Below, in pieces: positions 57,644-61,792 of a DNA stretch of 64,000 nt. Source of the stretch: an uncultured Pseudomonadota bacterium (GTDB lineage Bacteria > Oederibacteriota > Muellerivitia > Muellerivitales > Muellerivitaceae); assembly GCA_963770835.1 (NCBI GenBank), contig CAVYRH010000004.1, forward strand, positions 512,001 through 576,000. The letters run 5' to 3'. The notes under the pieces are model-generated. The model was not told the DNA's origin. It searched no databases and saw only the letters and a program-made list of their open reading frames with translations. How positions within the stretch are numbered: the first letter of the stretch is position 1; each line of letters starts with the position of its first letter. The position numbers and the translations under genes were made by a program.

Positions 57644-58324
57644 ATGGACGAAATCACAGCGGAACAATTATTAGAAAATACCAAAACCTGGAAACCCGAG
57701 GGGGATTTTGAGGCCCGGGTGGATAAACAATTGCGCGCGGCCCAGGCGCCGGAAGGGCTGGTCGGAGATTTGAGCCGGGCCTTTCACCGGTGTTCCGAAA
57801 GCACCTATGGTTACATCCAGTACATCCACGAACTGGCCACCACCAAGGAAATCGACCGGAAAAATTTCCTGCCCCAAGTGGCCCGGCTGGTAGGCTTGGT
57901 GCAGGAGCTCCAAGCCAGCGGGGAGGATTACCGAAAAACATTTCAAAAATACGACGACGTTATGCGGGCCGGCCTTACCCAGGACCATTTCGACACCATT
58001 TATTACGACGCCATCCAGAATATCGACATCCGGGTATTGTTGAAAAAGATCATTGAGGAGGTGGAGGTTGTTCTCCAGTCCTTCTCCATGGTCAGCGGGG
58101 ACCTATCGGGCATCCGGTGCGTCGATCTCTACGAAAGCAGCATCCGGTTCCAACTTTTCCTCCAGTATTTTTTGAACAAAGGGAAGTTTACCCCGGAAGA
58201 ACTGTGGTCCATCCTCTTTGACGTCTTCGACCAGATGGGAGAAATGGAAAACTTCTCCGTGGAGCCGACCGAGGAAGAACTGCGGGAGCTTCACGAAAAA
58301 ATACAGAAATACAAATCCAACTGA
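57644..58324 (+). CDS. Hypothetical acidic, probably helical protein
   Basis: 226-aa ORF 13 bp after the PHP gene with ordinary codon usage. No motif recognised. Confidence 0.6.
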   Translation: MDEITAEQLLENTKTWKPEGDFEARVDKQLRAAQAPEGLVGDLSRAFHRCSESTYGYIQYIHELATTKEIDRKNFLPQVARLVGLVQELQASGEDYRKTFQKYDDVMRAGLTQDHFDTIYYDAIQNIDIRVLLKKIIEEVEVVLQSFSMVSGDLSGIRCVDLYESSIRFQLFLQYFLNKGKFTPEELWSILFDVFDQMGEMENFSVEPTEEELRELHEKIQKYKSN

Positions 58325-58492
58325 AACCCGCGAAAATTTGCCATTCCCTTGAGGTGCACCCTTACGATCCGTTAACCTGCAATAACCAAACTTTCATTAG
58401 GATTTCTTCCAAAAAAGACAGCTAACAATTTATGGAACCGCTTTTTCCTAACGAGGTTTTAGGAGTTACCCGTTTAACTTCGCCAACTCAAA

Positions 58493-58522
58493 TTGATATT
58501 CTCAATTTATTGCGAATATAAT
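58493..58522 (+). promoter_or_regulatory. Candidate sigma-70 promoter of the cyclase pair
   Basis: TTGATA (58493-58498), 18-bp spacer, TATAAT (58517-58522) in an AT-rich intergenic region. Confidence 0.4.
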
Positions 58523-58589
58523 AAGCCCCTCACTACGAGTAGTTGTTTTTGACTTTTAAAATAATTTATTTAAGGAAGATCTTCCGGCA

Positions 58590-59630
58590 ATGGCCACACT
58601 CGAATCGGTCTATAAAAGGGCACATACCTCCAAAGTCTCCGTTTTCTTTTTCCTGATCCTCCTCATGCTCTCGGTGACGGCGGGAGAATTGGTTTGGACC
58701 CTTCGCCACAACCTTAGGGAGTCCCTCGTGGTCGGCGGCGTAGCCCTCTTCTTCTTCTGTATTTGGTGGTTTTTCTTCCAATGGCAAAGCAAAGTGACCT
58801 GGCTCTGCCGCCTTCAAATGATTTTCCTGGGTGCGGGCACCCTTCCGAACGATTACCGGCTTTCGGATGACGCCATGCCCTGGGACGTCGCGGAACGCAC
58901 CGATGCGGTGGTCCAAATGGCATCCCAAATGGTTCAAAAAACCCAAAGGGACCTCCAGGCCAACCGGAAAGCCTTGGACAAATATGTCGGGTCCCAGGCC
59001 TCCACACAGATATTGAAGCGGCCGACCACCGGGCTATTGGGCGGGGATATCGAAATGTTGTTCGTCCTTTTCTCAAAAATTCTGGGGTTCAACCAAATGA
59101 CCTCGAAACTGGCCCCGTCGGAAACGGTGGACACCCTAAACAGCCTTTATTCCGCCATGGCCGCCGCCGTGGAAACTCAAGGTGGCGAAATCAACAAATT
59201 CATCGGTGATTCGGTCATGGCCTATTTCAAGCGGCCGGATGGGGACCCATCCCAGGCAGCGGAAAGGGCCGTCGAGGCCGCGATGGACATGCAGAAAAAT
59301 TTCAACTTCCTGACCTCCGAAAACGAGGTCCTGAAGGCCCGGGGCCTGGAACTCGGGTTGGGAGTCGGCATTGTGTCAGGGCATGCCATCCTGGGCAACT
59401 TGGGCTGGCGCCAGCGCATGGAGTTCACCCTGATCGGCGACTCGGTCAACCTTTCCGCCCGCATTTGCGCCATTGCCCCCGCGGGGGAAATCCTGGTGAA
59501 CGAGGAGCTGGCCCAGATGGTCGGCGGTGGGTTCCGGACCGAAACCCGCCCTCCGGTCCAACTCAAGGGAAAAAGTGAAAAGGTCACCACTTATTGCATT
59601 TTGGGTCGAATGGAAACAACCCATGTTTAA
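58590..59630 (+). CDS. Membrane-anchored class III adenylate/guanylate cyclase-domain protein A (first metal-binding Asp lost)
   Basis: Two TM helices. Motifs LFSKILGF, INKFIGDS, EFTLIGDSVNLSAR and VQLKGK. Confidence 0.88.
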   Translation: MATLESVYKRAHTSKVSVFFFLILLMLSVTAGELVWTLRHNLRESLVVGGVALFFFCIWWFFFQWQSKVTWLCRLQMIFLGAGTLPNDYRLSDDAMPWDVAERTDAVVQMASQMVQKTQRDLQANRKALDKYVGSQASTQILKRPTTGLLGGDIEMLFVLFSKILGFNQMTSKLAPSETVDTLNSLYSAMAAAVETQGGEINKFIGDSVMAYFKRPDGDPSQAAERAVEAAMDMQKNFNFLTSENEVLKARGLELGLGVGIVSGHAILGNLGWRQRMEFTLIGDSVNLSARICAIAPAGEILVNEELAQMVGGGFRTETRPPVQLKGKSEKVTTYCILGRMETTHV

Positions 59631-59660
59631 ATCGATTCCGGGTTTTTAAAGGAGTAATTT

Positions 59661-60758
59661 ATGGCAACCCTTTCCTCGGTGAAGCACAGGGCCGAAACAG
59701 TGATGGTCCCCCTCTTTTTCTTTTTTTTGCTTCTCCTGCTATCCATCGTTGTTGGCCAACTCACATGGCTTTTCACCCAAAACTTACAGCTTTCCATCCT
59801 GTCGGGATCGGCGGCGGCGGTGATTTTTTACGTGTGGTGGTTCCTTTATCAATGGCAAACCAACGTGACCTGGTTATGCCGCATCCAGATGATATTTTTC
59901 GGGGCCGGGGCGTTGTCCGCGAATCACGCTTTTATCGACGATGCCCTGCCTTGGACTGTGAAAAAGCGCACGGAGGAAGCCATCAAAACGGCGGAGGAAA
60001 TCATAAAAGGAGCCAGCAAGAACTTGGTCGAAAACCGCCACGTGCTGGATAAATACCTGGGATCCCATGCCTCACAGCAGACGCGCCGGAATCCTTTCGA
60101 AGTCGGGGGGGAAAACCAGGAACAAGAGGTTATTATCCTGTTTTCGGACATCCGGGGGTTTACCGCCATGACCGAAAAACTGACCTCCAAGGAAACGATG
60201 CGGGTGCTCAACCAAATTTATTCCCTCTTGGGTTCCACCCTGGCCAGCTATGGGGGCGAGATCAATAAATTCATCGGGGACGCCATCCTCGCCCACTTTA
60301 AACGGTCGGGAACCAACCCGCGCGCGGAGGCTGAAAAAGTGGTCCAAGCCGCGTTGGAAATGCAGGAAAAGTTCGCCGCCTCGGTCCGCAAGAACAACGA
60401 TTTGAATATCCGCATGGTCAAAATTGGATTAGGAATTGGGATCGCCTCGGGGAAGGCCATCATGGCCAACCTGGGCTCGGAGAACCGGATGGAATTCTCC
60501 GTGATCGGGGACACGGTCAACACCGCGTCCCTTCTTTGCGGCCTGGCGCACGAGGGTGAGGTGCTGATCAATGAGGATCTGGCGCTCCTGGTCACGGACA
60601 AATACCACATGGAATCCCGCATGCCGGTGCAATTAAAAGACAACAAGGAAAGCACCACGCCCTATTGCGTTTTCGGCTCGATGGAAAACCGCGCGAGCAT
60701 CAAACAACCGCCCGCCAATCAAGATAATTTCTTTTCCCTTGAACAGGATAAAAATTAG
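59661..60758 (+). CDS. Membrane-anchored class III adenylate/guanylate cyclase-domain protein B (transition-state Arg lost)
   Basis: Two TM helices. Motifs LFSDIRGFT, INKFIGDA, EFSVIGDTVNTASL and VQLKDN. AAGGAG RBS. Confidence 0.88.
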   Translation: MATLSSVKHRAETVMVPLFFFFLLLLLSIVVGQLTWLFTQNLQLSILSGSAAAVIFYVWWFLYQWQTNVTWLCRIQMIFFGAGALSANHAFIDDALPWTVKKRTEEAIKTAEEIIKGASKNLVENRHVLDKYLGSHASQQTRRNPFEVGGENQEQEVIILFSDIRGFTAMTEKLTSKETMRVLNQIYSLLGSTLASYGGEINKFIGDAILAHFKRSGTNPRAEAEKVVQAALEMQEKFAASVRKNNDLNIRMVKIGLGIGIASGKAIMANLGSENRMEFSVIGDTVNTASLLCGLAHEGEVLINEDLALLVTDKYHMESRMPVQLKDNKESTTPYCVFGSMENRASIKQPPANQDNFFSLEQDKN

Positions 60759-60859
60759 ATGGGTTTTGGCGGGGAAACTGTGTTATTTGTTGCTTTGAGG
60801 CCGGGGTTTTTCTTTGAAATCGGGAGAATTTGAAACTGGAAAAATCAGGACGAATTTTT

Positions 60860-61792
60860 TCAAACCGGTATCGTTAGACCCTCGTAAGCGCAAATGGAGT
60901 TCGTGAAAAGTTTCTTGGCGGCTTCTTCCTTCTTGGCGACGGCCGCGTCGTCATGGTTAGGGTCATGGTGGTAAAGCACCAACTGCTTGACCCCGGCTTC
61001 CTTGGCCACAAAACAAGCCATCTCAGGTGTTGAGTGCCCGAAACCCTGGGTGGGGACGGGCCCCGTATACTGTTCCACGGTGTATTGGGCGTCGTGGATT
61101 AAGACATCCGCGCCCCGCGCAAATTGAATCAGCCTTTTGTCCCCCTCTTGGTAACCCTCGATATCCGTCGCGTAAACAATGGATTTTCCGGCATATTGAA
61201 GCTTGTAAACCAGGGTCCCGTTTTTGGGGTGGTTGTAGGCCCGGTACTGGCTCACGATGACCTTGTCCTTGAATGTGGCCTTGAAATCCGTCTGCAAGTT
61301 GACCAGTTCAGCCTCACCCCCCTCGGCCAGGAGAACTTGGTCGAATTGCTTAAGGGTCGAGATCTTTTTCAGGGAGTGGGTTTCCTTCAGGTCGATGGGA
61401 AAGAACATTTGGTCCATCATCATATCCAGCACGTAATCCAGGCCCGTCTTCGACCCGACGGGGCCGTAAACCGAGGGCCCGAAGATCGAAAGGGAGGTGT
61501 CGCCGATATAAAGGGGCGGGAAAAAGGGAAGGCCCATGACATGGTCGTGATGGGTGTGGGAAATAAGGATTGTCACGGCCAAGCGCTTCATCTTGTCGCG
61601 GTTGGCGAAGAAATTGCGCACCAATTGCTGGCCCGCGCCGATGATGCCGGTTCCGGCGTCCAGGAAGATGGTGTGGTCCAGGACGTTGACCTGGACGCAG
61701 GAGGAATTGCCCCCGATTTTGAGCGTGGAAGGTCCGGGAACCGGGATGCTTCCGCGCACCCCCCGGAACGTAATCGTGAAATCGTGAGCCAT
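60860..61792 (-). CDS. Metallo-beta-lactamase-fold hydrolase (phosphodiesterase-like)
   Basis: GVRGSIP, GGNSSC, LDAGTG, SHTHHDH, HDAQY, GHS and HHDP motifs. Confidence 0.88.
   Translation of the reverse strand: MAHDFTITFRGVRGSIPVPGPSTLKIGGNSSCVQVNVLDHTIFLDAGTGIIGAGQQLVRNFFANRDKMKRLAVTILISHTHHDHVMGLPFFPPLYIGDTSLSIFGPSVYGPVGSKTGLDYVLDMMMDQMFFPIDLKETHSLKKISTLKQFDQVLLAEGGEAELVNLQTDFKATFKDKVIVSQYRAYNHPKNGTLVYKLQYAGKSIVYATDIEGYQEGDKRLIQFARGADVLIHDAQYTVEQYTGPVPTQGFGHSTPEMACFVAKEAGVKQLVLYHHDPNHDDAAVAKKEEAAKKLFTNSICAYEGLTIPV

Follow-up and report, generated by a model that had tools for sequence, protein, structure and literature searches.

The question raised by this locus is whether two adjacent cyclase genes, each with a defective active site, together encode one working enzyme. 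The genes, designated A and B, lie in a window of 64,000 nucleotides (positions 512001-576000 of contig C4 in the source genome G000, which is 96% complete); all coordinates below are those of the window unless a contig is named. Both were confirmed as tandem open reading frames (ORFs) on the + strand with 30 nt between them. Gene A (58590-59630, 346 aa) encodes two transmembrane (TM) segments, a helical linker and a class III cyclase domain, and is C2-like. Gene B (59661-60758, 365 aa) has the same architecture by ORF, Pfam, alignment and hydropathy, and is C1-like. An earlier note, made from the DNA letters, had proposed that these are tandem paralogous cyclases with 2-TM N-termini; the ORFs, the PF00211 matches, a protein identity of 45% and the hydropathy profiles all agreed with this. 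As judged from sequence, A and B are predicted to form a lineage-restricted class III adenylyl cyclase that is catalytically obligate as a heterodimer and has a single live site specific for ATP, a reading to which a probability of about 0.7 is given.

The metal- and phosphate-binding half of A is degenerate (59076-59105, +). Four residues are changed, D163K (codon AAA, 59076-59078), R165L, T168N and E172S, at columns that were invariant in 37 intact orthologues and altered in 3/3 A-lineage proteins. Lys163 sits in the motif LFSKILGFN, and reversion of AAA to an Asp codon would take two base changes. The other half of the site is kept: base-specifying Lys203 with the second Asp207 (59196-59210, +; sequence and alignment), Thr280, Asn287 and catalytic Arg291 (59427-59462, +, with the Arg codon at 59460-59462; sequence, alignment and orthologues), and the KGK motif. 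The earlier description of A as having Lys for the first metal Asp, with the base-side residues kept, was borne out by the codon and by the orthologues P0084 and P0085.

The losses in B are reciprocal. Its metal/phosphate half is intact (60147-60176, +; Asp163, Arg165, Thr168 and Glu172), with the second Asp207 at 60279-60281. The arm and helix alpha4 are altered (60465-60533, +) by G269A, R274E, T280S, L281V and R291L, at columns invariant in the 37 intact orthologues and changed in 4/4 B-lineage proteins. Leu291 is encoded by CTT (60531-60533) and sits in VNTASL; this replacement of the catalytic Arg, beside retained Asps and phosphate loop, had also been reported from the letters, and was found again in P0073, P0074 and P0086. 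In the beta7-beta8 loop (60636-60653, +) Lys326 is kept, G327D and K331S are changed, and positions 326-328 read KDN. The earlier note had counted this as loss of KGK. The part of that claim that stood is G327D, the informative change in the loop, as Gly327 was invariant in 37/37 intact orthologues; Lys326 is retained, however, and position 328 is variable among intact orthologues too (KGM, KGL, KGI). The first Lys of KGK is presumably the phosphate-binding Lys; in that case B still has this residue, and the 'KGK loss' supports the proposal less than had been stated.

Neither protein therefore carries the full homodimer set, A being without Asp163 and B without Arg291. The base-specifying positions are of the adenylyl type in both (K203/T280 in A, K203/S280 in B), and a Lys with Thr or Ser is taken here to be the Thr-type, class IIIb pairing. 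The predicted ATP specificity follows from Lys203, at which position the guanylyl cyclase Cya2 (2w01) has Glu. Lys and Thr together had been offered as the sign of ATP; the Lys supports this, but Thr at the base site alone is not decisive for specificity according to PMC4215837.

In class III cyclases, as set out in PMC2576301, the two Asps, the phosphate-binding loop (P-loop) and helix alpha1 come from one monomer, and the Asn, Arg, loop Lys and base residues from the other. A complete site would be assembled from B (D163, D207 and P-loop) and A (K203, T280, N287, R291 and K326), and would make cyclic AMP (cAMP) from ATP. The other A:B pocket and both homodimers would be short of Asp163 or Arg291: A:A would lack a metal ligand, with Lys in its place, and B:B would lack the transition-state Arg. 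It may be speculated that Lys163 pairs with Asp207, replacing a metal. 'Obligate' is meant in the catalytic sense, which leaves room for homodimers that assemble without activity. Soluble guanylyl cyclase homodimers are described as forming yet being inactive for the same split-residue reason (PMC3591389), and in Rv1625c the D300A and R376A mutants are described as each inactive and together active (PMC4821796).

The substitutions were then followed through orthologues. The A lineage consisted of P0001 (A itself), P0084 (92% identical to A) and P0085 (99%), and the B lineage of P0072 (B itself), P0073 (88% identical to B), P0074 (81%) and P0086 (about 99%). Among the metagenomic proteins, P0084 and P0085 read LFAKILGFN, with Lys163 kept, and P0073, P0074 and P0086 read VNTASLLC and KD, with Leu291 kept. 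Sequencing error at Lys163 or Leu291 was ruled out by the recurrence of the same residues in these orthologues, which also settles the earlier caution that CTT is one base from CGT. With 4/13 listed runs compared, a contig from a second study matched 60511-60747 without difference, with only 21 letters left of 60532, and no listed piece spanned codon 59076-59078. P0084 and P0073 were on contigs of 2824 bp each, and the contigs of P0085 and P0086 both measured 102274 bp (two other assemblies); the A and B orthologues in P0084/P0073 and P0085/P0086 probably share a contig pairwise. A search with short A fragments returned two proteins, neither A-like, and genome contigs scanned with B alone gave no confirmed locus. 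Metagenome and genome contigs, when scanned with profiles, yielded two loci each, and the contigs of P0073, P0074 and P0084 were not among them. Two related loci from the profile scan were 53-55% identical to A.

A core test of five sites was applied to the 90 family proteins gathered, of which 86 were scorable. All five residues were kept in 79, and the other seven were exactly the A and B lineages. The reciprocal losses were thus present in three A-lineage and four B-lineage proteins and in 0/79 of the other scorable family proteins. A B homologue with Arg that occurs without A had been named as counter-evidence in the earlier note; none was found among these proteins, and the intact orthologues do not qualify, since Asp163 and Arg291 are both present in them. 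Constraint was measured over 114 columns that were at least 90% conserved among the 37 distinct intact orthologues. The A lineage departed at 21 of these and the B lineage at 16, with 2 in common; single intact orthologues departed at 0-7. Within the lineages, A and P0084 differed at 3/114 conserved columns versus 24/232 others (p=0.01), B and P0074 at 5/114 versus 63/249 (p=4e-7), and B and P0073 at 2/114 versus 42/249. This sparing of conserved columns within both lineages argues against decay. P0004, a close single relative (55-60% identical to A and B), has complete core residues but departs at 7 of the conserved columns, with Ser in place of Gly283 among them.

The radical changes fall on different faces of the domain. 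Those of A lie in strand beta1, the P-loop and helices alpha1 and alpha2 (D163K, R165L, T168N, E172S, R181D and Q185S/G), and also beside D207; those of B (G269A, R274E, T280S, L281V, R291L, I295L, G327D and K331S/T) map to the arm, to helix alpha4 and to the beta7-beta8 loop. With role segments following the assignments of PMC2576301, A had 8 metal-face and 2 base-face changes, and B had none on the metal face and 8 on the base face (p=0.001 by Fisher's test, and p=0.003 when sites 163 and 291 were left out). An independent check set of 146 new representatives included 40 with at least two cyclase domains, and reciprocal halves on one chain were present in 25/40 (a few rest on partial alignments). 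The C2-like domains of these 25 proteins keep R165 in 8%, T168 in 8% and E172 in 33%; the corresponding values for their C1-like domains are 44%, 96% and 92%. The losses at R165, T168 and E172 in C2-like domains match those of A. D207 in C2-like and K203 in C1-like domains are common (40% and 48%), as kept by A and B respectively. R291 was invariant in 37/37 intact orthologues and present in 102/106 single-domain representatives (3 gaps, 1 Gly). The reciprocal one-chain set also includes HAMP-containing proteins of approximately 2100-2400 aa with the domains far apart (e.g. P0142). The earlier assignment of B as C1-like and A as C2-like, with one predicted ATP site in A:B, is supported by the orthologue conservation, the constraint, the matching-face losses and the Rv1625c precedent.

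The pair has a narrow distribution. A match to A at E <= 1e-80 was obtained in 14/30 other family genomes, one in each, and two were obtained in G000 only. D163, K203, D207, T280, N287 and R291 were all present in each of the 14 single orthologues, three of which come from the genus of G000. The expectation that the same tandem pair would occur in related genomes failed, as it was not found in the 30 family genomes and a single intact gene was present in 14. The intact single-copy proteins (P0002 type) are 55-60% identical to A/B and share their architecture. In six intact orthologues (L016-L021) Asn or Glu replaces the otherwise conserved Asp284 (GNSVN, GESVN).

The genes flanking the pair, encoding a 226-aa hypothetical protein and a metallo-beta-lactamase-fold protein, were on one contig in 23/30 relatives. 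The gap between them was 33-234 bp in 19 relatives, 742-1213 bp in 4 and 2541 bp in G000; the four wider gaps of 742-1213 bp were inspected and contained no cyclase. The same-genus genomes G001 and G002 carry their intact gene elsewhere; the counterparts of its neighbours in G000 lie on contig C26 at approximately 663-685 kb, a region for which no cyclase match was listed. Because the flanks are adjacent in relatives and no cyclase is found at C26, the pair is placed at a new site in G000 and is the sole form of the subfamily found in that genome. In a 21-row tree the stem was 0.81 for A and 0.54 for B, and the branches inside both lineages were short; A grouped with intact P0002-type proteins at 84/83, and the placement of B was without support. 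A simple tandem duplication is the likely origin. By this history a copy of one intact gene would have given two lineages, each passing through a burst of change followed by renewed constraint. In G019 the wider cyclase family is represented at one locus (L060, G019:C1:66000-71500) by three paralogues in tandem, and the catalytic motifs of all three are intact, so tandem copies need not degenerate.

Several observations count against an obligate heterodimer. The B half is lightly eroded, with base-side Lys203, Ser280 and Asn287 retained, and B keeps 7/10 strongly C2-marked columns, like the intact orthologues (6-7/10), so its defect rests on few residues. The role segments were drawn after the data had been seen, and an independent, data-driven role index, computed on every scorable change other than the defining ones (7 in A, 3 in B; columns 327-331 are unscorable and lie outside it), gave no separation (p=0.28). 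Distinct sequences number only 2-3 per lineage. For P0074 (contig of 2527 bp) an A partner was not found among the best 8000 and 420 candidates scored. An A+B clade, which would make the two genes sisters, was neither shown nor rejected (approximately unbiased test, p=0.129). Intact paralogues with the 2-TM architecture of A/B (L005 and L006) are present in G000 as possible partners. Finally, Ma1120 is described as having Ala at the canonical Asn, and class III cyclases as tolerating non-canonical residues (PMC4215837).

Some of these points would suit a scheme in which B is a weak homodimeric cyclase, with Arg165 or Lys326, for example, covering for Arg291, and A is a modulator, the pair not being obligate. 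B has both Asps and Lys326 in addition to the base-side residues and C2-marked columns just listed, P0074 shows no A partner among the candidates scored, and Ma1120 is a cyclase without the canonical Asn. Against this stand the near-universal presence of R291 in intact orthologues and single-domain representatives, the description of Rv1625c R376A as inactive, and the change in B of the invariant residues G269, R274, G327 and K331 as well. The scheme is considered unlikely.

It is slightly less likely still that A and B are regulatory pseudo-enzymes that bind each other or L005/L006, tune or block cAMP synthesis, or hold nucleotide without turnover. The two intact 2-TM paralogues and a total of 14 PF00211 matches in G000 would offer targets for such a role, and cyclase catalytic interfaces can be promiscuous according to PMC3591389. 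L005 and L006 are, however, only 33-37% identical to A and B, and exactly complementary halves side by side would not be expected of two independent pseudo-enzymes; A keeps every base and transition-state residue, and B every metal residue. Drift of redundant copies to pseudogenes, with complementarity by chance, is very improbable: the stems are long, the distribution is narrow and other intact cyclases are present in G000, but the reading frames are open, the start signals are intact, the same substitutions are kept over 8-19% protein divergence and conserved columns are spared in both lineages.

An extension of the heterodimer proposal is put forward as a doubtful possibility. The pair might be a young, independent C1/C2-like split yielding a one-site heterodimer, in which a putative ligand-sensing dead pocket (forskolin- or bicarbonate-like) would be built from Lys163 beside Asp207, Trp273 and Asp181 of A and from Glu274, Ser280 and Leu291 of B, with charge swaps steering A:B assembly.

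By its sequence A/B would work like mammalian C1/C2 and soluble guanylyl cyclase while belonging to neither. In mammalian adenylyl cyclase (C1 of AC5 with C2 of AC2; 1azs, 1cjk) the metal Asps and P-loop likewise belong to one domain and the Lys, Asn, Arg and phosphate Lys to the other, giving one live site and one degenerate pocket, as is predicted here. The mammalian enzyme is one chain with two six-helix anchors, whereas A/B comprises two ORFs with two TM segments each. It has Asp at the base site, where A has Thr; A keeps Asp207, and B keeps Lys203 and Asn287. No evidence of G-protein or forskolin-type control as in mammalian C1/C2 was found for A/B. Soluble guanylyl cyclase alpha/beta, with two genes and reciprocal halves, has the closest genetic layout; a pseudosymmetric pocket is described alongside its inactive homodimers (PMC3591389). 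It carries Glu/Cys and H-NOX/PAS domains, in contrast to the Lys/Thr, membrane anchor and lack of H-NOX/PAS by Pfam in A/B.

The engineered Rv1625c pair similarly combines a metal-Asp mutant with a catalytic-Arg mutant, but both of its members are point mutants made in the laboratory from a single gene, and the Asp altered there is the second one; A and B are natural paralogues at 45% identity with the first Asp lost. Homodimeric bacterial cyclases (CyaC, 1wc0; CyaB, 3r5g; OaPAC; bPAC) have the same fold and Lys/Thr base residues, with all catalytic residues on one chain and two sites per homodimer as described in PMC9552081; in A/B these residues are split. Soluble adenylyl cyclase (sAC)-type proteins of C1-C2-AAA-TPR layout have reciprocal halves and have lost P-loop residues at the columns where A has (AAA_16 was detected in 6/8 scanned representatives), but both domains are on one, mostly soluble, chain, where A and B are single-domain proteins of 346 and 365 aa. 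A one-site core on a single chain is described for soluble adenylyl cyclase (PMC3475452), and bicarbonate-activated relatives are described in Chloroflexus (PMC11006738). The chytrid RGC/NeoR rhodopsin guanylyl cyclases are described as two-gene obligate heterodimers from a homodimeric family; these are fungal and GTP-specific, and as the isolated RGC1 cyclase domain is reported active alone, their split is not fully reciprocal (PMC10622942).

Bacterial class III cyclases are described as homodimers with two sites, and the C1/C2 split is placed in eukaryotes, in PMC9552081 and PMC4821796. No two-gene bacterial cyclase heterodimer was found in the literature searched, which was mostly without subscription papers, and an earlier mycobacterial proposal is possible. 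If the prediction is true, a bacterial two-gene, one-site enzyme would show that gene fusion is not required for the split, which could then appear late and on a local scale. What is distinctive here is the narrow range of the pair together with close intact relatives. These relatives (55-60% identity; 79 intact family proteins) would provide a natural before/after set for homodimer-to-heterodimer evolution, in which it could be asked whether complementary loss is enough by itself to fix a pair of duplicates and whether a freed pocket gains a regulatory job, and relatives at this identity would permit stepwise rebuilding of the whole path. Fixation of a duplicate pair by complementary loss is described as an experimental result for a yeast enzyme (PMC10888846), to which the present set would be a natural counterpart. 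Single 'dead' cyclase genes should not be annotated as inactive before the neighbouring gene has been checked.

A sigma-70-type promoter-like site, TTGATA-18 nt-TATAAT (58493-58522, +; 11/12 consensus), is located upstream of A. Two promoter-like sites were counted in 58250-60950 versus 1.6 expected from shuffles, and the site at 58493-58522 is to be read as a consensus match only; A and B both lie behind this one site. A Shine-Dalgarno-like AAGGA (58572-58576, +; sequence reading) lies 13 nt ahead of the A ATG. The 30-nt intergenic spacer (59631-59660, +) holds AGGAG (59650-59654) 6 nt ahead of the B ATG, and no terminator-like site was found in it. A and B share a reading frame, a one-in-three coincidence, with two in-frame TAA stops between them (59628-59660); loss of these stops would yield a fused C2-C1 chain. 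GC content at third codon positions (GC3) was 0.715 in A and 0.699 in B, and the G000 genome median was 0.699. Horizontal transfer of A/B was considered and set aside, as GC3 at the genome median gives no compositional signal. Among the runs listed as holding part of the stretch, 10/12 were labelled soil metagenome, mostly with a small share, and none was an RNA run.

The hydrophobic segments of A (58620-58784, +) span aa 11-39 and 44-65 by hydropathy, with AlphaFold helices at 14-39 and 42-82 and an outside loop that is almost absent; those of B span aa 9-40 and 44-62 by hydropathy. An outside domain is absent in A/B. The PF00211 catalytic domains cover aa 157-338 of A (59058-59603, +; E 9.6e-23) and aa 153-335 of B (60117-60665, +; E 5.7e-23), one per protein, with scores of 81.2 and 81.9 bits respectively, above the curated cut-off of 21.9. 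The AlphaFold model, available for A only, had a mean pLDDT of 79 and matched the CyaC, CyaB and Cya2 structures with Foldseek E values of approximately 1e-17 (TM-score 0.82-0.89 on target). The linker in this model is helix-loop-helix and may be HAMP-like. Atlas look-alikes with HAMP scored 0.84, under the 0.9 mark, and HAMP was absent from the 25 families listed for 78 Atlas members.

The 226-aa protein upstream (57644-58324, +) has no Pfam or NCBIfam match. Its gene is present once in each of 27/30 family genomes (35-82% identity), mostly oriented convergently to the metallo-beta-lactamase-fold gene, and is classed as a conserved gene of the lineage. The metallo-beta-lactamase-fold protein (60860-61792, -) is 69-95% identical in 28/30 family genomes. 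Its best NCBIfam matches, to RNase Z and to a family of cyclic-nucleotide phosphodiesterases, all scored far under the cut-off; it could be a cAMP phosphodiesterase. A functional link of this gene to the cyclases was set aside, as the same locus is without a cyclase in 23 relatives.

Elsewhere in G000, 17 matches to cyclic nucleotide monophosphate-binding domains were obtained, which are possible receivers for a cAMP output. Non-canonical cyclases were also recorded: L009 (G000:C19:79612-80148), in which His replaces the catalytic Asn and RGS takes the place of KGK, and L012 (G000:C7:79281-79697), with Gln at the base-specifying Lys. In L014 (G000:C7:156574-156795) a cyclase is in two fragments whose motifs are identical in every letter to those of the intact L003 cyclase; it is probably either a disrupted copy or a duplication produced by the assembly.

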